32,000 nucleotides of DNA from Planctomycetales bacterium (GTDB lineage: Bacteria > 4484-113 > JAFGCY01). This document shows, piece by piece, positions 408 to 26,209 of the stretch. The position numbers and the translations under genes were made by a program. The notes under the pieces were generated by a model that saw nothing but the letters and a program-made list of their open reading frames with translations, was not told where the DNA came from and searched no databases. Where the stretch lies: NCBI GenBank assembly GCA_022646745.1, contig CP060262.1, positions 1,320,001 to 1,352,000 on the forward strand. Direction: 5' to 3'. Every line of letters starts with the position of its first letter. Positions within the stretch are counted from its first letter, which is position 1.

Positions 408-1985
408 ATGCTGCAATCGGACAGGCGCAGGCTGCTCAAGAGGCTCGGGGTCGGATGGCTCTGCCTCGTCTGCCTGCTGGCAATCACTGCCGCCGTGCAG
501 CGCCAGCGTGAACTGACCGGTGTTGAGCGCACGCTGATCGAGAGCCGCTACCGTCACTTCGGGGAGATCGGCCGCCATGCCCGTGAGGAATGGCCGACCT
601 ACCGCCACTCCTACGCGCTTTATCTGATTGAGAACGGCCGCCGCAAGCCGGAGCTATTGCGCCTGATGCTGATCAGCGAGGCCTGCGTCGTCAAGCATGA
701 CAGCTACATGAACCGCTACAGCATGAACCTCGACCTGCGCCGGATGCTGATGCGCGAGGTGTTGCCTGCCAACCGTGATGACGCGCTGGTGCACTGGGCC
801 GCCGGGGTCTGCCTGATGAATGCCAGCCAGTTCGGCGAGGCTGCGGATGAACTGAAGCGCTCGCTGGAACTCGGGCTGGACCTGGACCGCTTCGGCATCG
901 AGAAACGCGACATACTGCTGCGCATCATGCTGGCAGCGGCGATGGATGGTGACCCTGCCGAGACAATGCAATGGGTGCGTGAAACGCAACTTGGCGAGGA
1001 CCATGCCCTGAACATGATCTATGCGGACCTGCTGTGCCGCCTGTACCTGTATGGTGACTGCATTGACTTCCTGGCGGATGCCGCAGATCCAGCCGACCTC
1101 TCCTGGGTGATCAATGATCCGCTGGCCCCCCAGCCTGCGGGAATGGCAATAGCCAGGCAGTCCAGAGGTGGCCGGATCTACCTGCGTGCGCTCTGGTACG
1201 ACGGGCACTACGGGGAGTTCGGTGAGTTCATGGAGCAGTTTGGCAGCGCTTTGCAGTCAGGCAATCCCATGGTGGAACTGATCACGCAATCAAGTCCCGG
1301 CTGGTTCGGTGGTGTCTATGAAGACGGAGCGGCATTCATGCCGACGATCCGGGCGTCACTGCTGGATGGCAGTCCGCCGGGAAGCGTGGACCAGCTGTTC
1401 TCCGAAACGAACGAGATCAGCATCCGCCACCGCCTGATGGGACTGGCTGAGGGCTATGCCCTGCTCGGCAGGATTGATTGCCACGACCGGCTTGCTGACT
1501 TGCTGGCCAGCGGCAAGCAGCGCCTGGCGGACGGAGCCTACGGCATGCCAAACGAACTGGACTGGTCCGAGCGCAACCAGCTGCAGCAGCTCACCGGCCG
1601 GGCCTACGGACAGCTGTTGCGCGCGGAGGTGCTGCGCCATGACTGGACTGCGGTGCAGCAGCTGATGGATGACAACGAGGACCTTTACTTCTGGCCGACC
1701 CCGCTTGCAATCAGCAGCGCCGGCTTCCTGCTCGGCATCGTCAACGGTGCGGAGGTCGCCGAACTGGCCTCCACACTGGATGGCTGCATCGAGGCCGCGC
1801 CCTTCCTGCTGCATTCGCCGGAGTACTTAGCTGCCTGCGCTGAAGGCGGGCAGGACCCGGACGAGTTGCGTCGTGCACTCGTCAAGGAGCTTTCCCGACC
1901 CAATGACCCGGACGACGGCTGGTACGGTGGCAACGCAGCCTACTGGGACAGTGCCAACGGTGAACTGGACTGGGGCAGCGTCTAA
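408..1985 (+). CDS. hypothetical membrane-anchored protein (N-terminal TM/signal anchor, helical repeat-like body)
   Basis: 525-aa ORF with a basic N-terminus followed by a hydrophobic stretch (RRRLLKRLGVGWLCLVCLLAITAAV). Codon composition matches the window. No motif I can name and no clear SD, so the start is uncertain. Its stop TAA (1983-1985) overlaps the stop of the convergent PL1 gene. Confidence 0.6.
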   Translation: MLQSDRRRLLKRLGVGWLCLVCLLAITAAVQRQRELTGVERTLIESRYRHFGEIGRHAREEWPTYRHSYALYLIENGRRKPELLRLMLISEACVVKHDSYMNRYSMNLDLRRMLMREVLPANRDDALVHWAAGVCLMNASQFGEAADELKRSLELGLDLDRFGIEKRDILLRIMLAAAMDGDPAETMQWVRETQLGEDHALNMIYADLLCRLYLYGDCIDFLADAADPADLSWVINDPLAPQPAGMAIARQSRGGRIYLRALWYDGHYGEFGEFMEQFGSALQSGNPMVELITQSSPGWFGGVYEDGAAFMPTIRASLLDGSPPGSVDQLFSETNEISIRHRLMGLAEGYALLGRIDCHDRLADLLASGKQRLADGAYGMPNELDWSERNQLQQLTGRAYGQLLRAEVLRHDWTAVQQLMDDNEDLYFWPTPLAISSAGFLLGIVNGAEVAELASTLDGCIEAAPFLLHSPEYLAACAEGGQDPDELRRALVKELSRPNDPDDGWYGGNAAYWDSANGELDWGSV

Positions 1986-3640
1986 GGCATCGGCAGCGGC
2001 GGTACCTGCGGTGCAATCGTGCCGAAGATAATCTGCCCGTCGTCCGTCCGGCGGTAGAACACGGCGGGATTGCCATTCAATTCGAAGAGCACGGGGCTGC
2101 CGAAACCACCGGCATTGCCATTAAGCTGCACATCCTGCCAGCCAAGCGGTTCCTGTGGCTGGGGTGTGCCGCAATCAGCCAGTTGCAGCTTGCCGCCAAA
2201 GGCATCCACTCCCAGCAGCAGCAGCCGGCTGCCAACCAGCTCCATCCGCGGGTAGCTGAGCTCGCCCGGCTCTATCAGAGCGCCTTCACTCCAGTCCGCG
2301 GCCAGCTCGCCGCCGCTGGTCGAAGCCCGAACATATCGCCCATAGGAAAGTGAGACCAATAGATCGTCGTCAGCGGCATGGAAGCCGATCACCGGAGAGC
2401 CGGCGAAGAAGCGCAGGGTGGGCATGGCCTGCATGGCCTCCAGGTCATCCGCTGCCACCACTGCCTGTTCGGGCCAGTCGTGTGACAGGACCCCGTCAAC
2501 GGAACTGCTGCGCATGTACAGTACCTGGCTGCTGAGCAGGGGCTGCTGCGGATTGCTCAGGTACCAGGCCACAGCCGGGTTGCCATCCACGATGCTAAGC
2601 GAGGGGCAGCCCAGCACATAGCCCGGCCCGAGGACTGCGAGAGCTGCCTTCTTGTCCCAGTCGTCATCCGTCCCGCCCTCCGCACTGAGGCTGCGGACAT
2701 ACAGCAGGTCAGCCTGCTCGCCAATGAAGCAGATCGCCGGCTTGCCATCCACCTCAGCCAGTGAATGCAGCGGGGCATGGTCCGTGAAGGAGGCCACATT
2801 GACCGATTTGCCCCAGCCGTCCGTTCCATCCGCTATGCCGCAGCGCACGTAACGCAGCTTCTTGTCATTGCCACTATGGTAACTGAGGGCCGGGTTGCCA
2901 CCGATCAGTGCCATGTCCAGCCACTCGCCCCCAGCAGCCTCCTCCAGCACGGTTGGCTCACCCCAGTCAGACTGGCCGAATCCATTGCCGTCCGCGCGCA
3001 GAAAGGCCGTACTGCCATTGTCATCAAGGAACGCCAGCGCGGGATTGCCTGCAACCTCAAGTGCGGCCATCCGGCTGTATCCGCCGCTGCTGAGCGCCAC
3101 ACCGGTCTCATTGAACTGCCAGCCATTCTCATGGCTGAGCTCGAAGCCGTCGATGTATGCACTGTTGCCGGGTGCTGCCAGCAGCGCGATATAGAGCTGC
3201 TCCGTGCCGGAGTACATCAGCTTGCTCGGCTGCAGGTCCATCACGTCGTCAGTGTGCGGGCCGCTGAATAGCCAGCGTCCAGTCTCGTAATCCGGCAGCG
3301 CCAGCCACAGCCCTTCACCGCTGGCATTGTCGATCTTCACGTTGATTCCCGTGATTTCACTGGAGTGCAGGCTCAGTTCATAGATCGCCCACTCCGATGC
3401 AGCAGCGGAGTCAAGCAGCAGGGTCGAACCGTCATCCGTGGCACCCGGCGAGCGCAGGTAGGTCTGATTGCCACGAACAGGCAGGGTCTGCAGCACCATG
3501 CTGCCCCTGAGGACATCCAGCGCGGGCAGCGTATTGCCGCCAGCCGCCGGACCATGCACGGCCGGCCTGCCGTCACCGGTAGCGCTGCAGCCATACAGCA
3601 GCACAGCACCAAGCAGCCAGAGGATTGTCATTTTCCGCAT
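1982..3640 (-). CDS. PL1: propeller lipoprotein (N-terminal RW-signature domain + Asp-box-like beta-propeller)
   Basis: AGGAG lies 8 nt upstream of ATG 3640. Lipoprotein signal MRKMTILWLLGAVLLYG|C. N-domain signature LALPDYETGRWLF. Blade strands EVAGNPALAF, LIGGNPALSY, EVDGKPAICF, IVDGNPAVAW, ELNGNPAVFY, with interspersed D-x-x-G-x-x-W-type turns (IADGTDGWGK, EGGTDDDWDK). Only 32 nt downstream of PL2, so probably one operon. Confidence 0.85.
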   Translation of the reverse strand: MRKMTILWLLGAVLLYGCSATGDGRPAVHGPAAGGNTLPALDVLRGSMVLQTLPVRGNQTYLRSPGATDDGSTLLLDSAAASEWAIYELSLHSSEITGINVKIDNASGEGLWLALPDYETGRWLFSGPHTDDVMDLQPSKLMYSGTEQLYIALLAAPGNSAYIDGFELSHENGWQFNETGVALSSGGYSRMAALEVAGNPALAFLDDNGSTAFLRADGNGFGQSDWGEPTVLEEAAGGEWLDMALIGGNPALSYHSGNDKKLRYVRCGIADGTDGWGKSVNVASFTDHAPLHSLAEVDGKPAICFIGEQADLLYVRSLSAEGGTDDDWDKKAALAVLGPGYVLGCPSLSIVDGNPAVAWYLSNPQQPLLSSQVLYMRSSSVDGVLSHDWPEQAVVAADDLEAMQAMPTLRFFAGSPVIGFHAADDDLLVSLSYGRYVRASTSGGELAADWSEGALIEPGELSYPRMELVGSRLLLLGVDAFGGKLQLADCGTPQPQEPLGWQDVQLNGNAGGFGSPVLFELNGNPAVFYRRTDDGQIIFGTIAPQVPPLPMP

Positions 3641-3672
3641 GTCTTGTACTCCTGGATTGTCCCGGCGGACAG

Positions 3673-5334
3673 TTACTGCTTTGCCTGCTTGAAGCTGAAG
3701 TCACGCGCATAACGCAGCTTTCCGTCGCCTGTCACGTAGAAGAAGGCCGGGCAATCGTCCACGGCGAGCATGTCGCATGCCAGTACACTGGGGGAACCGG
3801 GCAGTGGATACTCAGGGTATCCATAGATGAATGGTGAATTCGGCAACTCCCGTTGCACTCTGACGTCCAGGCTGTCGGTGGCGTCCCTGGAATATGCAAT
3901 TGCGATGTAGTCACCGAGACCGATCCCTGACAGCAGGCCGCTTCCCGGGCTGAGGCTATAGAACAATGACGTTGTCAGGCTCCAGTCCTGGTCCTCGTTC
4001 CCGTTTCCACCCTGGATCTGGCGGAAGCGCAGGTTCGGGTCCGTGTTGCTGGCACTGTCAGCGTGCATAAGATACATGGTCGGCTTGCTGTTGAGCGACA
4101 GCAGGTCTGCCCAGCTGTGTTCCAGCAGGTCTCCTTCGGTGACCACGGCGGGCTGGGCCGGCCATGCACTGAGCTTGTCACCGGAGGCTGTATCCGCTGC
4201 CATGAACAGCTGGCGGCCGTTCTGCTTGTCATAGAAGCTGACTGCCGGCTTTCCGCGGATCACCTGCAGGCTCGGGTTCAGCGCGCTGACACCGCCCCCG
4301 GAGTGGATCACCAGAGCGGCCTGCCAGTCAGCTGCCAGGTTGCCATCCGGACTGCTGCTGTGCCGGTATGTCAGGTTCAGGTCGGGCGACAGGTAGGCAA
4401 GCGCCGGCGTGCCGTCCACCTGCGCAAGGGAGCATTCCGGCACGTGGTCCAGCGGGGCATTGTCGATCTTCACCGGGCTCGGCCAGTCCGTTGTGAGCGC
4501 ACCCTCGGGGCTGCCGCAGCGGACGTAGCGCAGTTCCGCTGAGTTGTCATCATGGTAGGCGATCGCCGGGTTACCGTTGATTATCCGCATGTCAATCCAC
4601 TGACCGCTGGCAGTGGCGTCAACGAGCACCGGCGTGCCCCAGTCCCCGGGCTGCATTCCGTCGGCCGTTGCCGCGCGGAGATAACTCAGGCCGTTGGCAT
4701 CAAAGAATGCCACCGCCGGATGCCCAGCGACTTCAATCGCGCCGAGTGGTGACTGCACGATGTAGGACGGCAGCTCAATCCCGGTTTCAGCGCTATCCCA
4801 GCCATTGTCAAGCATGGTGCTGACCCCCTGGATGCTGAGGTAGCCATTACCCTCCGCCAGCAGGCAGATGTAGGTGCTGCCCTTTGCACTGCGCTGGGCC
4901 GGAGTTACCTGCACTTCCTCCATGCTGGCAGGGGCGGGCTGGAACTGCCAGCGGCCCGTCTGGAAGTCAGCAATCCCGAGGTACAGGTCGATGTCCGTGT
5001 TTTCGGTGTAATTGATGGAGAATGAGTCAACCGTGCTGCCATCCTCCGTCAGTTGCCAGATGGTCCAGCTGTTGTTCTGGCTGTCAGGGATCAGGTCCAC
5101 ATCAAACGTGATCAAATAGATGGAGGCGTTCGCGGACTTCTCCACCACTGAGGCCCCGTCTTTGTACTGGTTGTACAGGGATCCTGCATGGCGCAGCGGG
5201 GCCGCAGGACCGGATGCGTCAAGCTGGCCGGGTGCAGGCAGGAGAACTGTTTCCAGGGGCAAGGTCCGTGCGCCGCAGGCGCACAGCGAAACCGCAAGCA
5301 GCGTGGGCAGCCAGTATGGGATCGTTCGATTCAT
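3673..5334 (-). CDS. PL2: propeller lipoprotein, paralogue of PL1
   Basis: The ORF track starts at GTG 5337. ATG 5334 is preferred because GAGGA lies 6 nt upstream. Signal MNRTIPYWLPTLLAVSLCA|C. N-domain LGIADFQTGRWQF. Blades EVAGHPAVAF, IINGNPAIAYHDDNSAELRYVRCG, QVDGTPALAY, VIRGKPAVSF. Turns ATADGMQPGDWGTP, SSPDGNLAADW. Confidence 0.85.
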   Translation of the reverse strand: MNRTIPYWLPTLLAVSLCACGARTLPLETVLLPAPGQLDASGPAAPLRHAGSLYNQYKDGASVVEKSANASIYLITFDVDLIPDSQNNSWTIWQLTEDGSTVDSFSINYTENTDIDLYLGIADFQTGRWQFQPAPASMEEVQVTPAQRSAKGSTYICLLAEGNGYLSIQGVSTMLDNGWDSAETGIELPSYIVQSPLGAIEVAGHPAVAFFDANGLSYLRAATADGMQPGDWGTPVLVDATASGQWIDMRIINGNPAIAYHDDNSAELRYVRCGSPEGALTTDWPSPVKIDNAPLDHVPECSLAQVDGTPALAYLSPDLNLTYRHSSSPDGNLAADWQAALVIHSGGGVSALNPSLQVIRGKPAVSFYDKQNGRQLFMAADTASGDKLSAWPAQPAVVTEGDLLEHSWADLLSLNSKPTMYLMHADSASNTDPNLRFRQIQGGNGNEDQDWSLTTSLFYSLSPGSGLLSGIGLGDYIAIAYSRDATDSLDVRVQRELPNSPFIYGYPEYPLPGSPSVLACDMLAVDDCPAFFYVTGDGKLRYARDFSFKQAKQ

Positions 5335-5582
5335 CACCGGTCCTCAGGGGTCGGGTCGCTCCAGGGTGCGCTACTTCTACCCCGCTTGATTATCCCCGTG
5401 TATGGTTGGATGCCGGCATACACTTCTGCGTGATTTTGGCAATACACAGTACACCTGCAGCTGTATTGCCGAAATGCCCTTCAGGTGTACTGTCAACACT
5501 AGGCGGGTCCGGGCATAAGGGATGGTCGGGAGCAGTCCCGATACATCACTCCCGTGACTCTTTCGCGGGGAAGGACCATCCT

Positions 5583-14405: not shown

Positions 14406-14509
14406 TGCGCGGTTGCCAGCCAGACTGCCGGCCGGAACGACCTTGGCCCCGGCGGATCAGTCCGGCTGCCGCTGGTACTGAATCACGGCAGGCTGCATAA
14501 TGCTTGGCG

Positions 14510-15532
14510 ATGCTTAGGACCACCGTACTTGTCCTGCTGCTCATGGCAGCAATGTATGAACCCTGCCTGGCCTGGACCCCGGAAATCGGCAACCGCGCGC
14601 TGCCACTGTACGGCACTGACAGGGTAAGCGGCCAGTCGATCGAGCTGGACAGCATGAAGGGCAAGTGGGTACTCCTTGAAGCCTGGGCCACCTGGTGAGG
14701 GCCCTGCATGAGGCAGTTGCCTCTCCTGATCGAACAGACCGCTGATCTCCGGCAGCGCACGGACTTCGCGCTGCTGAGCCTGTGCTTTGACGACCCCTCA
14801 CGCCGCGAGCTGGTGGACCGGGCGATCGCGGACTACGGCATCAGCCATGCCGTGCTCTGGAACGAGACCGGCAGCCCGGAGCGCTCCAACATGGCGGACT
14901 GGAACATCCCCGGCTTCCCGACGACGCTGCTGATCGACGCGCAGGGCAACATCGTGATGGAGCTGGCCGTTGACAACTACCTGCGGGAGAACCTGCTGTT
15001 CTTCCTCGACCACTGGAGCGGTGCCGCCGGCTTCAGCCTGCAGATAGAACCCTACCGGGCGGCCGGATCTGGCAATGCTGCTGAAGCGGATTCCACCGCC
15101 GAGGTGGATTCCGTCCTCGGGAATGACCCCTTTGCCACCCAGCGCATTGCGCCGGACGCGAACCAGTCGATCCGCGTCGGCATCGTGCTCTACAACCCGG
15201 ACCATCAGCCGCTGGATGTGCAGGTCGACGTGCGGATGCAGAAGACGGAGTTGTTTGACGAAGGCCCGGTCCACAAAATAATGGGCGTGATGCATGATGT
15301 TGACTACCGCGCGCAGGGCCGGCTGCTGGACTACCGGGCCGGGTTCCCGGTGTTTGGCGATGAGCATCACGTGATCGTGGTGGATGATCTTGATGGTGTG
15401 CTGAACTTCGAGGTCGAAGTGGCGGTGCCCGTTCCCGGCTCGGAGGCCCTCAATGCTGGGCAGGGCCTGTTCTACAGGAAGAAGGCGCATGTGTTCACGA
15501 CCACGGCCTACATCATGTACCAGCTGGACTAG
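14510..15532 (+). CDS. TlpA/ResA-like thioredoxin-fold thiol:disulfide oxidoreductase, predicted selenoprotein (UGA 14696-14698 read as Sec) with ~170-aa uncharacterised C-terminal extension
   Basis: Track ORFs 14504-14698 and 14708-15532 are in the same frame, separated only by TGA GGG CCC TGC. The joined sequence reads KWVLLEAWATW-U-GPCMRQLP..., which is the W-C-x-x-C redoxin motif with TGA at the first Cys. Downstream fold markers are present (GFPTTLLIDAQGNIV cis-Pro loop). Signal peptide MLRTTVLVLLLMAAMYEPCLA. Start is ATG 14510, with TTG 14504 as an alternative. Confidence 0.65.
14710..14723 (+). promoter_or_regulatory. candidate apical stem-loop of a bacterial SECIS element
   Basis: GAGGC-AGUU-GCCUC is a 5-bp stem starting 11 nt after the UGA. 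A G-U sits in the tetraloop about 18-19 nt from the UGA, within the geometry described for bacterial SECIS. The stem is short and I could not extend it by eye. Confidence 0.3.
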
Positions 15533-15558: not shown

Positions 15559-15711
15559 TTTGAGGTTCCAGACTGGAACCTCAAAACGTAGCAATTCGGC
15601 CAATACACGCTTTGAGGTGCCAATTTGGCACCTCAGGTTTACCCTGCCAGATTGGCGTAGTCAACAAGGATCAAGGCTTCACCGCTTGAGGTTTCAGATT
15701 GAAACCTCAAG
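15559..15711. repeat. three related palindromic hairpins (REP-like) between convergent genes
   Basis: H1 is 15559-15585, tttgaggttcca-gac-tggaacctcaaa. H2 is 15613-15635, tgaggtgccaa-t-ttggcacctca. H3 is 15685-15711, cttgaggtttca-gat-tgaaacctcaag. The outer TTGAGGT/ACCTCAA is conserved, and the inner stem differs with compensating changes. H3 ends 7 nt from the guaA stop. Confidence 0.8.
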
Positions 15712-17376: not shown

Positions 17377-19113
17377 TCAGTGCAGGGTGTCCACCGTCAT
17401 CAGCAGGCGGTTGCCGCTCACGTACAGCATGTGCCGCGTGGGCCCGAGGTCCAGAAGCGGGCAGTGGATGTCCAGCAGGTCATAGCAGCTGATCTGCTCC
17501 GGCTTGCTCCAGCTGGTGGTGCCGCCATCCGCGCCGTGCACCAGCACGTTGCGGTGGAAGCGCCACTGCTGGATGGCAACCTGCGGCACTCCCTCATACA
17601 CGTACATGCCCTGCGGCCGCGCCCCGCCATCCACCCCGAGGAAGGTCTGGCTGATGGACTGCGGCACGGACCAGGTCTCTCCGGCGCTGCTTGTCGCGGC
17701 GGAGTACAGCGTGTTGTCACCGCCGCTGCCATCGTATGTGACCGCCGGCAGTCCGTTGTACTCGACCAGGTACTGCTGCGTACCCTGGCCCATCGCGCCA
17801 TCCACCAGGTTGGCAAAGTTCCACTCGCTGCCGCTCGAATCCTTCGCGCGCACGTAGTACAGCTTGTCACCCTCGAAGTTGCGGATCAGCGTCGCCGGGT
17901 TGCCGTCGATGATCGCCAGCGGGGTCATTGCATCCGCGTTGCCATTCGCGCCGACCGACGCCAGTGAGATCGGCTCCGGCCAGGCCATGCCCTCCGGGTC
18001 ACTGGCGCGCACATAGTTCGCGCTGCGGAAGCCGCCGATGAAGCTGATCTCCAGCCCGAACAGGATCGCCGGGTTGCCGTTGACAACCTTCAGCACCGGG
18101 TCATGCCCGCTGTCCTCCAGCGCGTCGACGATCTCCGTGTCATCCCACACACTGCCGTTCTGGTCCATGCTGCGGATGTACTTCAGCTTGCCGGTGCCAT
18201 GCCCCTCGCCATCCTGCTGCGGGTCCTGGAAGGCGACCGCCGGCTTGCCGTTCACCTCGGCCATCGACACCCCGCCAACGTCATCGATGGAGGTCAGCAC
18301 CACCGGAAAGCCCCACTGGCTGCCAAGTACATTCAGGCTGCGGGAGTACTTCATGTCGAACTTGCCCGGCACATCCCCCGGCTCCAGATAGACCACGGCC
18401 GGATTGCCATTCACCAGCGCCGCGTCATAGCTGTGCTTCGCCTGCGGCGGGTCAGCCGTGAACTGGTACACATCGGACGCTTTCCAGGGCACGCCCAGCC
18501 CGACGCTGCCCAGCCCGGCCTCGTCATCCCCGAGGTACAGCACCAGCATGTAGGCCTGGCCAGCCGGCCCGGCATACTGCTCGAGTCCCGGCAGCTCCAC
18601 GAATTCAGGCTGCTGCGGCCGGTACCAGTCCCAGCGGTTCGTGTCGAAGTTGCCCAGTCCCACGAACAGCAGGTCCTGCCGTTGCGGCACCTTGTGCCAG
18701 CCCATGCTGGCGCAGGGCAGCTGCGGCAGTTCGCTCATGTCAAGCAGGAAGGTGGCATATGCCATGTCGCCGCCCTGCCGGGTATTGAACCAGTCACTGT
18801 TCATCCTGAGGAAGTGGTTCAGCTCATCGATGCTGACATTGCGGTTCGGCAGCTCGGTGTCGTAGTCGTCAAAGTAGGCCGGTGCTTCCCGGTGGCTGGA
18901 GCTGGCCAGCCTGGTGCCATTGCTCCGCGCTGCCAGTTCCAGCGGGGCGGGCAGTTCCAGTCCGTTTGCTGCCGACAGGCCAGTGTCATCCGGCAGCGAA
19001 GCGCCAGCCTGCTGCGGCATCGCATCGACGGGAGGTGCATCTGTGCCCTGTCCGGCGCAGGCGCAGGACAGGATGGCAATCAGCAGGCAGGCCAGGTGGT
19101 TGTGCAGGCGCAT
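17377..19113 (-). CDS. PL4: propeller lipoprotein
   Basis: GGAG lies 7 nt upstream of ATG 19113. Signal MRLHNHLACLLIAILS|C. N-domain FVGLGNFDTNRWDW. Blades VNGNPAVVY, EVNGKPAVAF, VVNGNPAILF, IIDGNPATLI, EYNGLPAVTY, YEGVPQVAI. Turns SMDQNGSVWDD, ASDPEGMAWPE, AKDSSGSEWNF, SSAGETWSV, GADGGTTSWSK. Confidence 0.88.
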   Translation of the reverse strand: MRLHNHLACLLIAILSCACAGQGTDAPPVDAMPQQAGASLPDDTGLSAANGLELPAPLELAARSNGTRLASSSHREAPAYFDDYDTELPNRNVSIDELNHFLRMNSDWFNTRQGGDMAYATFLLDMSELPQLPCASMGWHKVPQRQDLLFVGLGNFDTNRWDWYRPQQPEFVELPGLEQYAGPAGQAYMLVLYLGDDEAGLGSVGLGVPWKASDVYQFTADPPQAKHSYDAALVNGNPAVVYLEPGDVPGKFDMKYSRSLNVLGSQWGFPVVLTSIDDVGGVSMAEVNGKPAVAFQDPQQDGEGHGTGKLKYIRSMDQNGSVWDDTEIVDALEDSGHDPVLKVVNGNPAILFGLEISFIGGFRSANYVRASDPEGMAWPEPISLASVGANGNADAMTPLAIIDGNPATLIRNFEGDKLYYVRAKDSSGSEWNFANLVDGAMGQGTQQYLVEYNGLPAVTYDGSGGDNTLYSAATSSAGETWSVPQSISQTFLGVDGGARPQGMYVYEGVPQVAIQQWRFHRNVLVHGADGGTTSWSKPEQISCYDLLDIHCPLLDLGPTRHMLYVSGNRLLMTVDTLH

Positions 19114-19207
19114 GGGGGGGCTCCGGTTGGTGTTCGCGGTTTGCTTCCCGGGATTCTATGGCAGGTCGGCCCGCCGCGTCACCCCCGCCGGGGTCCCGGG
19201 TGCTCCG

Positions 19208-19225
19208 TTTAACCGGAATTTGGGA
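19208..19225 (-). promoter_or_regulatory. conserved upstream motif TCCCAAAT-Y-CCGGTTAAA (PL4 copy)
   Basis: tttaaccggaatttggga at 19208-19225 and tttaaccgggatttggga at 21062-21079 are 17/18 identical. Each lies about 90-115 nt upstream of its start codon (19113 and 20971). Confidence 0.45.
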
Positions 19226-19237
19226 AATGCGCGCAGC

Positions 19238-20971
19238 TTACTCCAGCTGGCTGAAGATCAGCTGGCCTCCGCTGACATACAGGAAGGAAGGCACGCCGCC
19301 CAGCTCCAGCATGTCACTCTGGCCACTGAATTCCTGCGTGTTGCAGACATGCTCCGGCGCGCCCCAGCTCGTGCCGCCGGCGTCGTCCGAGCGCACGAAT
19401 ACGAGGCGGTTGGCATTGTACTGGTCCACCAGCACCGCCGGCTTGCCGTCCAGCATCACCAGCCCGCGCGGCTGTGACCCGGGATCATCGACGAAGTCGC
19501 TCTGATAGACCAGCACCGGGTCGTTCCAGCTGCCGCCATCGGCATCCTGCGCCAGACGCCAGTAGGTGTTGTCCGTGTTGTCAGTGTCGTACACCATCGC
19601 CGGCAGGCCACCCACGTCCATCAGGTACAGGCTGAAGCCGGAGCGCTGGGGCACGAAGAACGGGGTGCCGGATCCCCAGGCGGTCCCGTTGGCATCGGTG
19701 GCACGGATGTAGCCGACGGTCTCCTGGTTCAGGCCGGACTGGTAGGCGATTGCCGGAAAACCGTCAATCACGGCCAGCGGTGAGTTGTAGATCCCGTAGC
19801 CGCCGCTCACCGGACCCTTCACCGTGACCGGGCTGTTCCAGCTGCTGCCGTCCGCGGCACTGGCCTGTACGTACATCAGGCCCTTGCTGAATCCGTCAAG
19901 GTCCTCATTCGCGTAGGAGACTGCCGGCATACCGTTGACAATCGTCATGTATGGTGAGATTCCGTGGTTGTCTCCCATGCCGTCGTCAATCGTCATGCTG
20001 CTGCCCCAGGCAGTGCCCTGCGGGTCAGCCGAGCGGACGAACCTGAGTGAACCGTGGGCCACGAAGCCGTCGCCGGGGTTCACATATTCGAATTCCTGCC
20101 AGGCTATCGCCGGATTTCCATCAACAATGGCCAGGGAGATGTACGGCATGAACTCAGCGGGTCCCAGCACGTCGATCGCCGCGCCCCAGGCATTGCCGGC
20201 GCTGTCCAGCGCACGGGCGAACTTGACCGTGAACATTTCCGCGGCGAAGTCCTCCGCAATCCAGGCGATGGCCGGCTTGCCATCCGCCAGCACCAGTTCA
20301 ATGTCCTGGTCCAGCTGGATCTCGTCGAACTCGCCGTAATCCACCACCGGGCTTGTGCTCCACTCGCTGCCGACGCTCACGCTGCCGAGCTGCAGGGTGT
20401 TCGGGCCGCTCTGCAGCACCAGAACAAGCATCCGGCTGGCGGCATCAGTGTACGGATCAAGGGAGGAAAGCTCGGCAACCTTGGCGGAATTGAACCATTC
20501 CCAGCGATTGCTGTCAAAGTTGGCAACTGCGAAATAGGCCATGCCCTCATACGGACCGGCGACCCAGTCCACCCGCACCCGCGGCAGCGGGCTGAGCCCG
20601 GACAGGTCGAAGCTGAACATCGCGAAACCGAGGTCGGCCGGGTCATGGCTGCTTGACCAGCCCCCGGGGATGTACAGCGTGTCCTCGCCGAACAGGCTGA
20701 ATACACCCTGGCTGGGCAGGCTGGCGTCATAGTCCCTGCCGAGGAGCAGGGCGAAGTCACCGGCCGCACTGGACTGTCGTGATGGTCCGGCGCCAGCGGG
20801 CAGCGCCAACGGGTCCGGCAGGCCAGGTATGAACTGCGGGGCTCCAGGGCTGTCATCAGCCTGCAGATTGACCACCGCATCAGGCATAGGCTGTGGGGAC
20901 TGCTGGCCTCCACAGGCACTGAGCGCGATCATCGAAATCAGCAAGGGAAGAATCCTGGCAATCCTGGGCAT
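19238..20971 (-). CDS. PL5: propeller lipoprotein (7 recognisable blades)
   Basis: GGAGAG lies 4 nt upstream of ATG 20971. Classic lipobox MPRIARILPLLISMIALSA|C. N-domain YFAVANFDSNRWEW. G-x-P-A strands occur at aa 231, 285, 347, 404, 455, 509 and 559, spaced 50-62 aa apart. Turns SADPQGTAWGS, SAADGSSWNS, ATDANGTAWGS, AQDADGGSWND, SDDAGGTSWGA. Confidence 0.9.
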   Translation of the reverse strand: MPRIARILPLLISMIALSACGGQQSPQPMPDAVVNLQADDSPGAPQFIPGLPDPLALPAGAGPSRQSSAAGDFALLLGRDYDASLPSQGVFSLFGEDTLYIPGGWSSSHDPADLGFAMFSFDLSGLSPLPRVRVDWVAGPYEGMAYFAVANFDSNRWEWFNSAKVAELSSLDPYTDAASRMLVLVLQSGPNTLQLGSVSVGSEWSTSPVVDYGEFDEIQLDQDIELVLADGKPAIAWIAEDFAAEMFTVKFARALDSAGNAWGAAIDVLGPAEFMPYISLAIVDGNPAIAWQEFEYVNPGDGFVAHGSLRFVRSADPQGTAWGSSMTIDDGMGDNHGISPYMTIVNGMPAVSYANEDLDGFSKGLMYVQASAADGSSWNSPVTVKGPVSGGYGIYNSPLAVIDGFPAIAYQSGLNQETVGYIRATDANGTAWGSGTPFFVPQRSGFSLYLMDVGGLPAMVYDTDNTDNTYWRLAQDADGGSWNDPVLVYQSDFVDDPGSQPRGLVMLDGKPAVLVDQYNANRLVFVRSDDAGGTSWGAPEHVCNTQEFSGQSDMLELGGVPSFLYVSGGQLIFSQLE

Positions 20972-21061
20972 GCAACTCTCCGGTCAGAACATCTTTCTGT
21001 CGGGAGAATGTTAGGCCAGGGCTGGCTCGCCGGTCCTGTCCAGTGCTCAATTGAGAATCAA

Positions 21062-21079
21062 TTTAACCGGGATTTGGGA
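21062..21079 (-). promoter_or_regulatory. conserved upstream motif TCCCAAAT-Y-CCGGTTAAA (PL5 copy), in the divergent spacer with the Ig-like lipoprotein gene
   Basis: See 19208-19225. Confidence 0.45.
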
Positions 21080-21170
21080 TTAGCTGTTTAGCGCCTGGGG
21101 GCTGCGGGTAACAAACATGGTTGCCGCAGGAGGCAACCCCCAAACAGTAATCTCCATCAAGGATGTGTGT

Positions 21171-21707
21171 ATGTACAGGAATGTACTGATGATGATTTCC
21201 CTTGTGATCGTGCTGTTTGCCGCTTCCTGCGGGGGCGGCGGGTTCACGGTCGGCGATCCCGGTGGCGGCGGCACTCCCGCTGACAACACAGCCCCCGAGG
21301 TCGTGATCAGCGGCATCAGCGAAGGCAGTGCCTACGGCGAGCAGCAGCCCGGCGTCAACTTCCTCAATGTGAAGGGTGTGGCGGCTGACACCGGCGGTGT
21401 CGCCAACATGGCGATGCGCATCAACGGCACGCTGGTCGCTGCCAGCAATGACAGCGAGCTCAGCTTCGGCTGGGACGTGACCGGCTATGATGACGGTGCC
21501 TACGAGGTGGCGGTGCAGGCCAGCGATGCCAGCGGCAACGTGGCTGAGGAGGTCGTCAACGTGATTGTTGACAACGACCTGATCTTCATCCCGCCGGGCA
21601 GCTTCTGGCCTGAGCTGGACCTCGACTTCGGCATCGAGGACCCGATCCCCGACCCGGATCCGGGCCCGTGGGTGCCGGACCTCGACATCATCTTCCCCGG
21701 CCTGTAA
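21171..21707 (+). CDS. small lipoprotein with bacterial Ig-like domain
   Basis: AAGGA lies 7 nt upstream of ATG 21171; the track start at 21117 adds 18 aa. Signal MYRNVLMMISLVIVLFAAS|C followed by a Gly-rich linker. DNTAPEVVISGI...VKGVAADTGGVANMAMRINGT...WDVTGYDDGAYEVAVQASDASGNVAEEVVNVIVDN is a typical Big/cadherin-like Ig pattern. Confidence 0.8.
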   Translation: MYRNVLMMISLVIVLFAASCGGGGFTVGDPGGGGTPADNTAPEVVISGISEGSAYGEQQPGVNFLNVKGVAADTGGVANMAMRINGTLVAASNDSELSFGWDVTGYDDGAYEVAVQASDASGNVAEEVVNVIVDNDLIFIPPGSFWPELDLDFGIEDPIPDPDPGPWVPDLDIIFPGL

Positions 21708-21771
21708 GCCGGACCCCACCGGATAAGCGGCCTGTGCGGGATGCACGCGCCGCCCCGGAAACCTTGAAAAG

Positions 21772-21797
21772 AAAGCCTGCTCCACGGAGCAGGCTTT
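21772..21797. terminator. bidirectional intrinsic terminator between convergent genes
   Basis: aaagcctgctc-cacg-gagcaggcttt is a perfect 11-bp stem. It is flanked by gaaaag on the left and tttaccttt on the right, which gives T-runs in both orientations. It overlaps the TAA (21796-21798) of the cohesin-like gene. Confidence 0.55.
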
Positions 21798-23022
21798 ACC
21801 TTTCCTCTGGGCTCCGCCTGTTCCCATGCTGCATGTCCGAACTCCATACGGGCCGCTGGACCGGCAGGGGCAGGACATTGTCACCGCTGGCATCCAGTAC
21901 GTAGCGCGATCCCGCTTCCATCAACATTGTCAACCTGCAGTCCGCAGGGTCCCTGATATCCTGCCTGGCACTGAACCTGAGCTGGGCAATCCGCCCCTCG
22001 CCCGCCGGTTCCGCCTGCGGGGAGCGGCTGTCGATTGCCAGCAGCACCCGCCCGTATTCCTTGTCCGGCTGGGCGAAGTAGATGCGGGCATCAGCACAGT
22101 CATCGAAGAAGCCACCGAGCTGCGCATCCCGGAAGCTGAGCTTCGTCCTGTCAAACTCAATCACGAACAGCCCCTTGCCGAAAGCCGGCAGCCCTGTGGC
22201 ATCCAGCTCGACGTAGAGATCCCCGTCCTCACGCAGCGTTTCAGGCAGCTCAGTGACAAGTTCTACCAGCGGATCCGGCTCCCGCACCACGACTTCCATC
22301 TCCAGGAAATCCGTCAGAGCCTCGCCATCCGCCAGGGCCCGGACCCTGATGCGCGCCGGCCCCGGCCTGTCCGGTGTCCACCTCAGCTGCGGTTCAGTTG
22401 TAGTGACCCTTGTTGCTTCATCAATTCCGGCATCTGGCAACAGTGTGTCATTGGCAGGCTGGATAAGTGGCTCAACTAGCGCCTGCCTGCCGGAGAATGC
22501 CACTGTCACAGCGGGATCCGCTGGCTCATCATCCGGCGTTCCGGCCAGTGACGCCAGTGCCGATTCCAGCCCGCTTCCCACCGTACCGAGTGCTTCAGCA
22601 AGCGTATCCGTCCCCGGACCGGCGCTATCTGGGCCGGCCTCTGCCGCTGCCTGATCCACGGGCAAGGGACTGACCTGGTCCGCTGCGGAGCTGGCACCGC
22701 TGTCAAGCTGCCATTCATATTCAAGCTCCCGGTCTGAGGGGTTGTCATCCTCGAGCAGGATAAGGTAGCTTTCTCCGGGGTGCACATCACCGGTTTCCAT
22801 GTACAGCCGCCCAAGCCTGACAACAGCCTGCGCTTCCACAGGCTCACTTTCCGCTGATGCTTCCTCCCCCTCGCTGTCCCCACCCGTCGGGGTGCGGTAC
22901 TGCTCCTCTCTTCCGGCAGTATCCGCCGCATCGGCTCCGGCCGGAGTGCCGCTGCTGGTGCAGGCGCCGAAGAGCACAGAGCTGAGCATGATGCCAAGAG
23001 CTGCGAACCTGAGAACTCCCAC
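21796..23022 (-). CDS. lipoprotein with acidic linker and C-terminal cohesin-like module
   Basis: GGGAGGA lies 6 nt upstream of GTG 23022. Signal (M)GVLRFAALGIMLSSVLFGA|C. Acidic low-complexity region (DSEGEEASAESEPVE). The cohesin-like segment is at aa 252-385. Confidence 0.8.
   Translation of the reverse strand: MGVLRFAALGIMLSSVLFGACTSSGTPAGADAADTAGREEQYRTPTGGDSEGEEASAESEPVEAQAVVRLGRLYMETGDVHPGESYLILLEDDNPSDRELEYEWQLDSGASSAADQVSPLPVDQAAAEAGPDSAGPGTDTLAEALGTVGSGLESALASLAGTPDDEPADPAVTVAFSGRQALVEPLIQPANDTLLPDAGIDEATRVTTTEPQLRWTPDRPGPARIRVRALADGEALTDFLEMEVVVREPDPLVELVTELPETLREDGDLYVELDATGLPAFGKGLFVIEFDRTKLSFRDAQLGGFFDDCADARIYFAQPDKEYGRVLLAIDSRSPQAEPAGEGRIAQLRFSARQDIRDPADCRLTMLMEAGSRYVLDASGDNVLPLPVQRPVWSSDMQHGNRRSPEER
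21868..22269 (-). other. cohesin-like module
   Basis: LYVELDATGLPAFGKGLFVIEFDRTKLSFRDAQLGGFFDD...IYFAQPDKEYGRVLLAIDSRS...GEGRIAQLRFSAR follows the cohesin strand pattern. That pattern is (h-x-h-x-[YF]-D-x-x-x-h) ... (G-x-h-x-h-x-h) ... (G-x-h-A-x-h-x-F). Confidence 0.55.
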
Positions 23023-23234
23023 AGGCCGTCCTCCCCTGTCAATCCGTGATAGACAGCAATGACGCGGCCGGGACGGTCACGTTCAACGGAGTGTTAGTCT
23101 GAGGCCGACCCGGCCCAATTGCTCCCAGGAGCCACACAGCAACTCCAGCTGCTTCTCATTCTGCTTCTGCTTCTCATTCTGCCAAAGGCCTACTGATTTC
23201 TGCCCACTGACCACTGCCCACAGACTACTGATTG

Positions 23235-23251
23235 CCAGGCTTACAGCCTGG
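23235..23251 (-). terminator. short hairpin 7 nt after the stop of the 23259-24623 gene
   Basis: ccaggct-tac-agcctgg is a 7-bp stem with no U-tract. The next gene starts 212 nt further on. Confidence 0.3.
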
Positions 23252-23258
23252 CCTCCTC

Positions 23259-24623
23259 CTACGGCACCTGCACGAACTCGCAGACCGGCCCCAGCTCCTC
23301 GCCGAGGTACGGCCTGAGGTAGAGGTAGCTGCCGCTGGCCGGGGTGAAGGGAAGTTCGTACGAGAATGTCAGCGGCAGGGGTAAATCGAGATAGCCCATG
23401 CTCAGCAATGGAGTGTTGCTCTCCTCACCCCAGTAGCCATCAGGAAGCTGGGCCTCGCTGGCAGCGAAATACAGTCTGTAGCCCTCGAAACCGCCACCGA
23501 AGTGCAGGCCCAAAGGTGAGAGGTCGGCGATACTCACCTGGCTATCCTGATTGTAGTCAGCGTACTGCACCTCGCCCGTTGGATCGCTTTTGGATGAATC
23601 GCCCAGGTACCTGCCAATCATTGTCAAGTCAGTCGCATCAACGATGCCGTCCCGGTTGCCATCGCCAGCGAAGTACTGATGCCAGCTGAGCATGTTCGCT
23701 GTCTCACTGTACTGAAGTGCGGTGCTTTCGACCCTGACTGGCAGAAGCAGGCCGAAAGCCGACTCGTACAGTCCGCCACTGCGGGAGAAACAGGCCACGC
23801 GGTCCTTGGTATCCGGTCCGTCGTCCACATACACCCAGTAGCGGCTTGCCAACTCTCCCACTAATTCAAGTTCAAACTGCTTCTGGCCCCCCGGCCCGGT
23901 GCTCGCCATTTCCAGCGGGACCGCCCTGCTTGCCAACCCGGCATCGCTGCTGCCTGGGTAGCGCGTCATGCCGCCGGTGACCGTACAGCCCTCAAAGTCG
24001 CGCCCGAAATTCCGGGCAATGGCCACGATGTCCGACAGGTTGATCTCCCCGTCGAAGTTGCCATCCACCACATACTGCATTGACCCTGCCGGGAACCAGC
24101 CGTAGTCCAGCGCGACATTCCTGTCAGCCGATTCCCCGATGTGCTTGGAAAGGGGCACAAGATCAGCTGCATTCACGCTGCCATTCTGGTCATAGTCGCC
24201 ACCGAACAGGTACAGCCAACGCAGTGTCCGGGCCTGGTGATTGACCCGCAGGTGCAGGTCATCACCATAAAGTGGAATGCGCTTGCTGTAAGCGAAGGAT
24301 GCTGAGCGGGTCCCGTCAGCATCTGCTTCTTCCAGCAGCCTCGCCAGCTCCGCCTTCAGCTCCGCGAACACTTCCGCATCGACATCCGCAGGCGTTTCCA
24401 GCGCGGCGATCTCGCGCATCGCGGCGGTGAGGTCGATTGCCACAGTTCCCGATTCCGATACCTGCTGCACAATCTCAGCGGGGTCCGGCATCCTGCCGGA
24501 CTGAGCCAGATCAGTGGTATCGACACCACTGCCGCAGCCGCCTGCCAACATGCTTGCCAGAATGCATGCAGCACTTGCCATCAGTCCGGCAATCCTACAT
24601 TCACTACTCGTTCTCTTTTCCAT
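23259..24623 (-). CDS. Doc1: lipoprotein with two dockerin modules, each followed by an ~80-110-aa module
   Basis: GGGAGA lies upstream of ATG 24623; the track start at 24689 adds 22 aa. Signal MEKRTSSECRIAGLMASAACILASMLAGG|C. Dockerin A spans 24003-24200 (DYDQNGSVNAADLVPLSKHIG / DGNFDGEINLSDIVAIARNFG). Dockerin B spans 23496-23666 (DGNRDGIVDATDLTMIGRYLG / DYNQDSQVSIADLSPLGLHFG). Confidence 0.85.
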   Translation of the reverse strand: MEKRTSSECRIAGLMASAACILASMLAGGCGSGVDTTDLAQSGRMPDPAEIVQQVSESGTVAIDLTAAMREIAALETPADVDAEVFAELKAELARLLEEADADGTRSASFAYSKRIPLYGDDLHLRVNHQARTLRWLYLFGGDYDQNGSVNAADLVPLSKHIGESADRNVALDYGWFPAGSMQYVVDGNFDGEINLSDIVAIARNFGRDFEGCTVTGGMTRYPGSSDAGLASRAVPLEMASTGPGGQKQFELELVGELASRYWVYVDDGPDTKDRVACFSRSGGLYESAFGLLLPVRVESTALQYSETANMLSWHQYFAGDGNRDGIVDATDLTMIGRYLGDSSKSDPTGEVQYADYNQDSQVSIADLSPLGLHFGGGFEGYRLYFAASEAQLPDGYWGEESNTPLLSMGYLDLPLPLTFSYELPFTPASGSYLYLRPYLGEELGPVCEFVQVP

Positions 24624-24739
24624 GTCCGTCTCCCGTCTCGTCAGTCCTCGACATTCCAACTGGCTGGTCTGCTCTCTGCTCTCTGCCAACGCATTCTCCT
24701 TCTGCTTCTCATTCTGCCAACTGCCTACTGCCCACTCGC

Positions 24740-26209
24740 CTACGGAATCTGGATCACTTCGGAGGGATAGCCCAGCACCTGCAAGCTGCTGCCAGGAATG
24801 TCAACCACCGGGCGCAGCCAGAGCCAAGCACCGCTCGGTAGATCCTCCAGTATGAGTTCGTGCCACAGAAGCGAATCCGGTAGATGTGCGGCGTAGTTCT
24901 GATACCACTCCGTCGCCTCGTATGCCTCCTGGCTGGGAAAGTCCTCACGCAGAGGTCCGCCGCGCCTGATATAGATCGTGACAAAGCTCGCGTAGGGTGC
25001 GGGTCCTTCCGACACCGGTATCTGTGCGTTCAGCGGCAGCTCAGCTTCATCCAGGGTCATGTAAACGTTTGTCGTAGGCCGCCACGCGGTAAAGAACATG
25101 GGCAGAGAAATGATGTCCGTGGAGCCGATATGGCCGTCACGGTTGAAGTCCAGACCAGCAAGGAAAGGCGACTCGGCCGCATCCGAATAAGTCTTGTCCA
25201 TGTGGATGGCCCAGTCGTCAATGTCAGCGACATTCACTTCCGAGTTCCTGTCGGAATCTCCGACCGCAACCTCGTCATATGTGAGTGCCCGGCTTGCTGG
25301 ATCGTAGCTCAGGCGGCTGTAGCTTGTGTAGCGGATCTGCAGCGGGTCATAGCACAGCTGGCTGACACGTCCGGAACCGGCAGTGCCGACCCAGTAGTAC
25401 ATTTCCGGCTGGTCCGCGAAACCGCTGAAGCTGAACTGCCGCAGGCCGCTTTCCGATGTACTTGCCTCCTGGGGCGGATCGCTTGCCAACGGAGCAATCA
25501 GGGTCGGTCCGCTGCCCTGCCACGGGTAGTCACGGATGTCCTTCGATCCGTACAGCAGCATCCTGGGCGAGGTGCCGTAGTTGCGGGCAATAGGCACGAT
25601 GTCCGCAATGTTGATGATGCCGTTGCGGTCACCGTCAATGTGGCGCAGCAGGCGGTTCTTGCCGGGGCTGCGTCCGATGTTGATTGCCAGTGGCACGAGG
25701 TCGGCGGCGTTGACGATCCCGTTCTGATCGTAGTCTCCGTCCACGCAGTACTCCGCCGTGAGCAGCGGGCTGGAACTGGTGAAGCTGGTCACGGGACGGC
25801 TCAAGTGCTCATCGTAGGCATCCATGTCGGAATCCCAGAATTCGGCATCACTGGTGGATCGCGGCTCATCTCCGAGGCCTGGTGCTGATACCTCAGTCAA
25901 ATTCTCAGGGATGCTTCCGGTCGTCAGCAGCCTCGCCAGCTCCGCCTTCAGTTCGGCGAACACTTCCGCGTCGACATCCGCGGGAGCCTCCAGCACAGCG
26001 ATTTCGCGCAGGGCGGCGGGGAGGTAGATTGGGGCGTCTGGGGCGGTAACTAATCCAGTGGCAGTCTCAGAGTCCGATCCGGCTGCATTGCCGGTCTGGA
26101 TTGCAGCTTCGCCAGCCGCAGGAAGCTCAGGCGTGCGCGCATCTCCGCCGCAGCTCCCGAGGAGCAGCATCACCAGTATCAGTGTCCCGTATCCGATCCG
26201 TCCGCACAT
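24740..26209 (-). CDS. Doc2: lipoprotein with two dockerin modules, tandem paralogue of Doc1
   Basis: GGGGGA lies 6 nt upstream of ATG 26209. Signal MCGRIGYGTLILVMLLLGS|C. Dockerin A spans 25571-25744 (DGDYDQNGIVNAADLVPLAINIG / DGDRNGIINIADIVPIARNYG). Dockerin B spans 25094-25261 (DSDRNSEVNVADI / DFNRDGHIGSTDIISL). Confidence 0.85.
   Translation of the reverse strand: MCGRIGYGTLILVMLLLGSCGGDARTPELPAAGEAAIQTGNAAGSDSETATGLVTAPDAPIYLPAALREIAVLEAPADVDAEVFAELKAELARLLTTGSIPENLTEVSAPGLGDEPRSTSDAEFWDSDMDAYDEHLSRPVTSFTSSSPLLTAEYCVDGDYDQNGIVNAADLVPLAINIGRSPGKNRLLRHIDGDRNGIINIADIVPIARNYGTSPRMLLYGSKDIRDYPWQGSGPTLIAPLASDPPQEASTSESGLRQFSFSGFADQPEMYYWVGTAGSGRVSQLCYDPLQIRYTSYSRLSYDPASRALTYDEVAVGDSDRNSEVNVADIDDWAIHMDKTYSDAAESPFLAGLDFNRDGHIGSTDIISLPMFFTAWRPTTNVYMTLDEAELPLNAQIPVSEGPAPYASFVTIYIRRGGPLREDFPSQEAYEATEWYQNYAAHLPDSLLWHELILEDLPSGAWLWLRPVVDIPGSSLQVLGYPSEVIQIP

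Follow-up and report, generated by a model that had tools for sequence, protein, structure and literature searches.

Selenoproteins in which selenocysteine (Sec, U) replaces the first Cys of a CxxC motif (UxxC forms) have already been catalogued for the TlpA-like/redoxin fold (PMC13188914), and selenoproteome surveys have used as their criterion set a UGA codon aligned with Cys together with a hairpin resembling a selenocysteine insertion sequence (SECIS) (PMC1088965). The consensus for the bacterial element (bSECIS) comprises a loop of 3-9 nt on an upper stem of 4-16 bp, a G at loop position 1 or 2 that often has G or U directly after it, a UGA-to-loop distance of 16-37 nt, and a minimum free energy (MFE) of ≤ -7.5 kcal/mol, and bacterial SECIS elements are often unlike one another (PMC13188914). 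The minimal element of Escherichia coli is a 17-nt upper stem-loop located 11 nt from the UGA, with the essential loop bases G23 and U24 (PMC8659212). Here we describe a gene at positions 14510-15532 of a 32,000-nt stretch of contig CP060262.1 from a Planctomycetales bacterium (the window), in which an in-frame UGA, codon 63, very probably encodes Sec as an active-site residue of a thioredoxin-fold enzyme that is predicted to be exported. This reading draws its support from the pairing of UGA with Cys in homologues, the presence of the UGA in several clades and several paralogues, selection on both sides of the UGA, and a covarying hairpin, built of rare codons, that fits the consensus. An initial annotation of this DNA had proposed a Sec-containing oxidoreductase, which the conserved UGA, the Cys homologues, the selection and the covarying hairpin now support, and had stated that Sec oxidoreductases with a thioredoxin fold are known, as indeed the catalogued UxxC TlpA-like forms attest (PMC13188914).

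The predicted product shares with the catalogued UxxC TlpA-like selenoproteins the redoxin/TlpA-like fold, Sec in place of the first CxxC Cys, the existence of Cys homologues, and a SECIS candidate in the coding region just past the UGA. It appears to differ from them in a conserved C-terminal β-sandwich of ~120-170 residues and in the organization of its subfamily in candidate phylum UBP7, where genomes carry three Sec paralogues and one Cys paralogue. The family NF041054, a ResA-like selenoprotein with a WAxxUGC motif, has the same ResA-like fold and an almost identical W-A-x-x-U context (W-A-T-W-U here), but the motif in the window is U-G-P-C (UxxC) rather than U-G-C, and a score of 30.8 bits against a cut-off of 300 places the protein outside that family. 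Bacillus subtilis ResA and Bradyrhizobium TlpA, which are thiol-disulfide reductases acting in the periplasm or extracytoplasmically, have a CxxC motif, cis-Pro loops and an N-terminal export signal in common with the window protein, which differs from both in its predicted Sec for Cys and its extra C-terminal domain, and which scores far below their equivalog cut-offs.

The gene and its predicted product

The sequence at 14678-14710 reads GAA GCC TGG GCC ACC TGG TGA GGG CCC TGC ATG. The two ORFs that flank the TGA (14504-14698 and 14708-15532) lie in a common frame and are separated by 9 nt, and translation of 14510-15532 on the plus strand gives 340 codons with the TGA at codon 63 (14696-14698) as the sole internal stop, in the context ...GKWVLLEAWATW*GPCMRQLP... 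(KWVLLEAWATW*GPCM). The stop codons of the 15 long genes in the window, the G+C content of which is 62%, are TGA in six cases, TAG in five and TAA in four. Since TGA is thus the ordinary stop for 6/15 of these genes, the genetic code is not reassigned. The DNA reading, the shared frame of the two ORFs and the ordinary use of TGA as a stop elsewhere had all been given in the initial annotation, and the sequence and ORF coordinates agree with it on each. The features of the gene are as follows.

14510-15532, plus strand: complete putative selenoprotein gene, 340 codons and a TAG stop, read through UGA codon 63; a single frame with both halves under purifying selection
14510-14572, plus strand: predicted signal peptide MLRTTVLVLLLMAAMYEPCLA, recognized by inspection from its basic N-terminus, its hydrophobic core and an A-x-A-like site for cleavage (CLA, followed by W)
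14618-14959, plus strand: thioredoxin-fold domain (Redoxin/AhpC-TSA, TlpA/ResA-like), residues 37-150, from Pfam and PDB sequence matches
14696-14698, plus strand: UGA codon 63, read as Sec; matched in Cys homologues and ResA by the first Cys of CxxC, and TGA in 14 distinct Sec forms from five clades
14696-14707, plus strand: predicted redox motif U-G-P-C (U63-G-P-C66); its three inter-ORF codons vary synonymously or by Pro to Gly only
14710-14723, plus strand: candidate SECIS hairpin GAGGC-AGUU-GCCUC, stem 14710-14714/14719-14723, loop AGUU at 14715-14718; 70/70 cells paired, RNAalifold
14912-14926, plus strand: cis-Pro loop GFPTT, opposite the LPTS loop of ResA; the column is Pro in 15 of 18 aligned family members
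15035-15529, plus strand: C-terminal extension, a low-complexity linker (~residues 195-218) followed by a seven-strand β-sandwich (~219-330)

When Cys is substituted at codon 63, residues 37-150 match the Pfam families AhpC-TSA (42 bits, cut-off 26), Redoxin (38.6, cut-off 26.6) and Thioredoxin_8 (30.5, cut-off 27), and the closest PDB sequence matches are ResA, TlpA and CycY, with E ~1e-10 for ResA and TlpA. In all these alignments codon 63 faces the first Cys of CxxC and GFPTT the cis-Pro loop; with B. subtilis ResA (4nmu), W-U-G-P-C lies over W-C-K-P-C and G-F-P-T-T over P-L-P-T-S. The domain match, the active site and the placement of the cis-Pro assign the predicted product to the TlpA-like/Redoxin thioredoxin-fold superfamily (PF08534, PF00578; cd02966). 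No NCBIfam family scores above its cut-off (ResA NF002854, 56.4 bits against 170; TlpA NF047696, 44.4 against 230), and by sequence the protein is a superfamily relative only, not a ResA or TlpA orthologue. The signal-peptide segment evolves fast (pN, the proportion of nonsynonymous differences, is 0.40 against the close relative L001, where L numbers designate related loci), as is usual for signal peptides, and cleavage sites were located by inspection in paralogues after PALA (before F) and TANA (before Q), compared with MLRTTVLVLLLMAAMYEPCLA before W in the window.

The linker that follows the redoxin domain is longer in one of the family's clades, clade A, and the C-terminal domain beyond it carries the motifs ..DGS..., SP.H.PL and PG[ST]E.L..G.G, which are kept in Sec and Cys family members. 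It has no match in Pfam or NCBIfam. We modeled the 274-residue downstream fragment with AlphaFold2 from a 19-sequence alignment, and obtained a mean predicted local distance difference test score (pLDDT) of 72.5, with 83-91 for the seven C-terminal strands. For the C-terminal domain, a Foldseek search of the PDB gave only weak, generic β-sandwich matches, topped by the macroglobulin-type MG4 domain of complement C5 (E = 4e-4) and including the Fn3-like domains of GH3 enzymes and C5a peptidase, arrestin and ApaG. As modeled, the extension is an immunoglobulin-like β-sandwich domain that defines a family. The initial annotation had correctly recognized the TlpA/ResA fold with its cis-Pro loop, which the Pfam matches and the ResA alignment bear out, and had described an extension of ~170 residues with no recognized motif; the extension is there, but the second part of that description needs adjusting, given the conserved β-sandwich and its PG[ST]E.L..G.G motif.

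The UGA codon across the family

In close relatives (94-99% amino-acid identity) the same codon is TGA in 9/9 independent assemblies, which include the 1.88-Mb contig JAWLAZ010000001.1 of a metagenome-assembled genome (MAG) and the MAG 'UBP7 HKST-UBA01', and the identical TGA is found across NCBI, ENA, JGI and Logan assemblies of different samples and sequencing runs. The 90%-identity cluster of the C-terminal fragment is represented on contigs from NCBI, ENA and Logan assemblies. In the public assemblies examined the gene and its paralogues are all called as an ORF of 62-64 residues and a domain-less 'hypothetical protein' of 220-275 residues.

A full HMMER pass over 1.8 billion cluster representatives, with the 274-residue fragment as the query, returned ~30 relatives. 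Among these are full-length W-C-G-P-C proteins with the same C-terminal domain (P0034, P0036, P0042 and P0059), and further Cys forms of the same architecture are encoded at L018:4564-5472 and L013:489-1379. Other relatives start exactly at the residue after CxxC, which is the pattern of split selenoprotein genes, and the DNA of every true truncation has TGA at the homologous codon. Cys stands at the aligned position, where the initial annotation had suggested looking for it, in P0034, P0036, P0042, P0059, the two Cys forms at L018 and L013, and ResA. The TGA forms comprise those at L008-L010 and L011-L012, in the species-representative genomes L017-L020 and in the metagenome L024, those at L013 and L014, in which the motif is U-G-G-C, and additional copies at L018:5700, at L019:2258 and at L027:1745, the last a short form without the C-terminal domain (clade E). 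Two proteins considered as truncated Sec forms, P0046 and P0047, are really Cys forms, one with its start called wrongly and the other frameshifted in a contig of 2x coverage.

The TGA thus occurs in five divergent clades (A-E) and 14 distinct Sec-form sequences, with clades B, C, D and E at 22-41% identity. The MAG UBP7 HKST-UBA01 (JAGRNR01) has three Sec paralogues, A (the window type), B and C (L015, L017 and L020), at 27-41% identity; bacterium isolate AC1.30 has Sec paralogues A, B and C and an adjacent Cys paralogue, and Planctomycetales bacterium isolate Ww346 has B and C. That three paralogues of one genome should all be 'mutated' at the catalytic codon is incompatible with their being pseudogenes. 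In a neighbor-joining tree (unbootstrapped) the Sec clades A, B and C group together, D stands beside the Cys form P0034, and a purely Cys clade is the sister group. Saline activated sludge from Hong Kong's Shatin plant is a reported source of UBP7 MAGs (PMC8495973), and the 'HKST' in its name, by the name alone, suggests the same origin for HKST-UBA01.

The window and L001 are ~95% identical in DNA, and in the mature part upstream of the TGA nine of the 11 substitutions fall at third codon positions. The mature N-terminal part has a proportion of synonymous differences (pS) of 0.29 and a pN of 0.027, and the C-terminal domain a pS of 0.23 and a pN of 0.032, so that pN/pS is ~0.1 on both sides of the TGA. 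The low pN on the two sides indicates that both halves are translated, in frame, in both lineages. The inter-ORF codons of the 14 Sec forms are GGG, GGT, GGA or GGC, then CCC or CCA (GGC in clade D), then TGC; since G-P-C or G-G-C is kept by synonymous or conservative variation, the 9-nt spacer is translated in the same frame and is not intergenic. No other disruptions were found in the 14 distinct Sec-form sequences. At L007 (~1063-1862) the C-terminal β-sandwich has a frameshift, and the region is called as ORFs of 213 and 60 residues; this is either an assembly error or a decaying copy. We also looked through ~150 kb, made up of the window and related loci, for further ORFs interrupted by TGA that have a redox-like motif and a hairpin downstream; apart from obvious high-GC noise, only members of the same family came up.

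The hairpin following the UGA

The candidate SECIS hairpin starts 11 nt after the UGA and is 14 nt long, with 16 nt from the UGA to the loop. All 14 Sec forms have a 5-bp stem, an invariant AGUU loop and the fixed 11-nt offset (70/70 pair cells paired, alignment A6), and all 14 have the geometry of the bSECIS consensus, with a 4-nt loop, G at loop position 2 followed by U, a 5-bp stem and a 16-nt spacing. The stem is GAGGC/GCCUC in clades A and C, GGGGC/GCCCU or GGGGC/GCCCC in B, GCGGC/GCCGC in D and CAGGC/GCCUG in E, such that the first pair is G-C in nine sequences, G-U in four and C-G in one, and the second is A-U in seven, G-C in five and C-G in two. In 500 column shuffles neither the pairing nor the covariation score of the real alignment was ever attained, displacement of the 3' arm by 1-3 nt lowered the pairing to 43-81% of cells, and RNAalifold independently predicts the same helix. 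Covariation involves base 1 of the Arg/Gly codon and base 3 of the Pro codon, which indicates compensation through synonymous sites.

The hairpin is built from codons that are rare by window usage, namely AGG (12% of Arg), TTG (4.2% of Leu) and CCT (8% of Pro), and TTG is used in 14/14 Sec forms. With the peptide MRQLPL and the codon usage of the window taken as given, a perfect stem and an AGUU loop would arise with a probability of 0.006. The hairpin exceeds chance expectation: only ~0.05% of window positions carry a perfect 5-bp stem capped by an NGUN tetraloop, and of the 477 plus-strand TGA triplets codon 63 alone has such a hairpin at +11. On its own the hairpin has a free energy of -7.1 kcal/mol in the window, with values of -6.8 to -9.2 in the family; 45-nt local folds range from -11.8 to -18.7, and the minimum-energy fold includes the hairpin in 8/9 of the clade A-D forms folded and in the clade E form. 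What had been recorded as a weak SECIS candidate in the initial annotation is now the best-supported part of that proposal, with a fixed position, a fixed loop, five clades and compensatory changes.

Like the SECIS of E. coli fdhF, the hairpin has an 11-nt offset and a four-base loop with G-U at positions 2-3 (GGUC there, AGUU here), and lies inside the coding region; unlike it, the stem is only 5 bp, and there is no consistent bulged U and no conserved lower stem. An E. coli-like lower stem with a bulged U was considered as a conserved part of the element and rejected, as it is absent from the clade of the window and from clade C; of the five clade B sequences, L008, L017 and L024 have a GCA/UGC lower stem, and a lower stem with a bulged U is found in L013. 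RNAalifold also proposes a second helix, GGGCC...GG.CCC (14685-14704), with the UGA in its loop, which we regard as a by-product because it is made of W-A and G-P codons, shows next to no covariation and is disrupted in clades D and E.

The hairpin is absent from 6/7 Cys forms. The Cys form P0042 has the identical peptide GPCMRQLPLL but encodes it with CGG CAA CTG CCC, resulting in a stem mismatch and the loop AACU, and the Cys paralogues located near Sec forms (L018:4564-5472 of AC1.30, L013:489-1379 and L027:665-1561) pair at only one or two of the five positions.

Competing explanations, mechanism and genomic setting

Several observations weigh against the assignment of Sec to codon 63 and of the hairpin as its SECIS. 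The hairpin just misses the -7.5 kcal/mol threshold of the consensus, the window's own 45-nt MFE fold is a competing structure, and the 81-nt region 14690-14770 is no more stable than shuffles (z = -0.45); it is comparative evidence, not thermodynamics alone, that singles out the element. Rfam finds no SECIS family in the whole window at gathering scores, nor in 14640-14820 at E ≤ 10, where there are only chance matches (mir-7177, 7SK), and no Rfam or sequence similarity to the fdhF SECIS was found. The bacterial SECIS models of Rfam derive from other lineages, and given this and the dissimilarity of bacterial SECIS elements the null result weighs little. No sel genes or tRNA-Sec were found in the window (ARAGORN; Pfam, 17 ORFs), no tRNA-Sec in ~200 kb of related loci (ARAGORN, 16 loci) and no sel gene among the ten Pfam-scanned ORFs of L018. 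A search with E. coli SelA alone, aimed at the UBP7 genome, scored the best 8000 word-sharing candidates, and the 120 matches listed are all from Enterobacteriaceae. Finally, the Cys form P0034 (L027:2208-3086, GCA_022560355.1) keeps a perfect CAGGC-UGUU-GCCUG at the SECIS position, and the hairpin is thus not strictly exclusive to UGA forms. The tree places P0034 within the Sec clades, and its gene immediately follows that of a short Sec form (TGA at L027:1745); its hairpin is probably a fossil SECIS, the remnant of a Sec form that was tandemly duplicated and recently converted to Cys.

The locus could be imagined to hold two genes, with the UGA terminating a 62-residue secreted peptide and a second protein starting from the AUG at 14708 (GUG in clade D), possibly by termination-reinitiation through the Shine-Dalgarno-like GAGG in UGAGGG. 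This is how gene callers annotate it in every assembly, and the GAGG does lie 7 nt upstream of the AUG. The downstream product, however, would be without strand β1, U63 and C66 and could not be a redoxin, the full-length Cys homologues show the halves to be one protein, across 22-41% divergence the ORFs keep a common frame and a 9-nt separation, and the spacer always codes for G-P-C or G-G-C with synonymous variation, all of which makes two genes a very improbable arrangement. A full-length but selenium-free protein would result if the UGA were recoded independently of SelB, by a near-cognate tRNA (Trp or Cys) or by hairpin-stimulated read-through. Hairpins 3' of stop codons can stimulate read-through in other systems, and no Sec machinery was found in the window and related loci scanned, both of which speak for such recoding. 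Against it, the position is that of the catalytic nucleophile, at which Trp or Gly would inactivate the enzyme, and for Cys a TGC codon would suffice, the one used in paralogues from the same genome; moreover, the geometry of the hairpin and its G-U loop match the SelB-dependent consensus specifically, and a UGA aligned with Cys together with a SECIS-like hairpin is precisely what selenoproteome surveys have used (PMC1088965). We consider SelB-independent recoding improbable.

The initial annotation had itself raised two other origins for the TGA, a sequencing error and, should the same TGA occur in a relative together with other disruptions, a pseudogene. A nonsense mutation in a decaying redoxin gene has in its favor the frameshift in the C-terminal domain at L007, but five clades, and three paralogues from a single genome, have TGA at this codon, pN/pS is ~0.1 on both sides of the TGA, indicative of purifying selection, and the 14 Sec forms are free of other disruptions; we regard decay as extremely improbable. 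An error of sequencing or assembly at a TGC or TGT codon is practically ruled out, as the TGA is identical in NCBI, ENA, JGI and Logan assemblies and recurs in the nine independent assemblies of close relatives, and nothing was found in its favor. Taken together, the evidence for Sec at codon 63 reaches and surpasses what published selenoproteome surveys have asked for (PMC1088965).

On the Sec reading, the product would be a 340-residue exported thiol-disulfide oxidoreductase of TlpA/ResA type with Sec as its nucleophile (U63-G-P-C66), and the 14-nt hairpin 11 nt past the UGA would act as a bacterial SECIS during translation. The hairpin would bind SelB carrying Sec-tRNA(Sec), to which it would present the G-U of the tetraloop, and SelB would bring Sec to the UGA in the A site in place of release factor 2, allowing translation to run on via G-P-C into the remaining redoxin domain and the C-terminal β-sandwich. 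After export by way of the signal peptide, the U-x-x-C pair would cycle between the selenol/thiol and selenenylsulfide states and reduce, or exchange with, disulfides or oxidized periplasmic targets, and the β-sandwich would probably serve as a target-binding or anchoring module.

Merging the two called ORFs would, as far as the sequence allows one to judge, recover a functional redox enzyme, and the merged gene implies the use of Sec by the candidate phylum UBP7. The established picture of bacterial selenoproteins is unchanged; UxxC TlpA-like selenoproteins were already known, and what is added is an unannotated two-domain subfamily, a candidate phylum and an unusually compact SECIS. The conserved C-terminal β-sandwich marks an uncharacterized subfamily of exported thiol/selenol oxidoreductases. 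The family also offers a well-controlled example of a minimal SECIS, with two compensatory pairs, rare codons, absence from a Cys homologue with the identical peptide and an apparent fossil, and, if the assignment is true, the Sec forms, the Cys forms and the fossil SECIS would constitute a clean natural series for Sec-to-Cys conversion. If the cognate SelB needs only the 14-nt element, the latter would be a compact and portable tag for Sec insertion. More tentatively, and with considerable doubt, we suggest that this is among the smallest naturally conserved bacterial SECIS elements (14 nt at a fixed 11-nt offset, within about five codons for [M/V]-[R/G]-Q-L-P), kept through three gene duplications in the uncultured UBP7 and carried by a previously undescribed two-domain exported selenoenzyme (Sec-redoxin and β-sandwich).

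No conserved operon partner was found at the gene in the window or in the flanks of the relatives. The neighbors in the window, identified by Pfam, are an AraC-type regulator upstream and guaA downstream, while the upstream neighbors in relatives are a PKD protein or a 2OG-Fe(II) oxygenase, and no cytochrome-maturation or CcdA/DsbD gene is present among the Pfam-scanned ORFs (17 in the window, 10 in L018). In L018 (4564-10735) and L019 (2258-6953) the order is Cys paralogue, Sec paralogue C, 4HBT thioesterase, DNA alkylation repair protein, methyladenine glycosylase, Sec paralogue B, tRNA-Pro. At five loci from different genomes the selenoprotein gene of paralogue B or clade D is followed, after ~120-155 nt, by a tRNA-Pro(GGG) gene, a conserved synteny (L008, 1649-1725; L013, 2661-2737; L017, 5948-6024; L018, 10881-10957; L019, 7068-7144).

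Large ORFs without any Pfam match surround the gene in the window (408-5337 and 17377-26209; 525, 552, 554, 578, 577, 276, 408 and 489 residues), and others have PKD or dockerin modules only; such an abundance of Pfam-less large ORFs is typical of a poorly characterized phylum. Upstream of the gene, and separated from its ATG by 9 nt, the 15-nt sequence at 14486-14500, GGCAGGCTGCATAAT, is shared unchanged by the window and L001 despite diverged flanks. It was not flagged by a scan for the sigma-70 consensus; it may serve as a -10-like element, in which case the leader would be very short.

Three perfect 25-nt palindromes of the form TTGAGGTnnCA-nnn-TGnnACCTCAA (15560-15584, 15612-15636 and 15686-15710; chance expectation 0), with compensatory changes between the copies, take up the spacer that separates the selenoprotein gene from guaA, which is convergent with it. 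Two to four copies are found at the same place in the relatives L001, L002, L007 and L015, where ORF6N/pRha-like and Cys_rich_CPCC genes are also inserted, and the palindromes may be elements resembling repetitive extragenic palindromes or miniature inverted-repeat transposable elements (REP/MITE-like), or protein-binding sites, at a variable hotspot.

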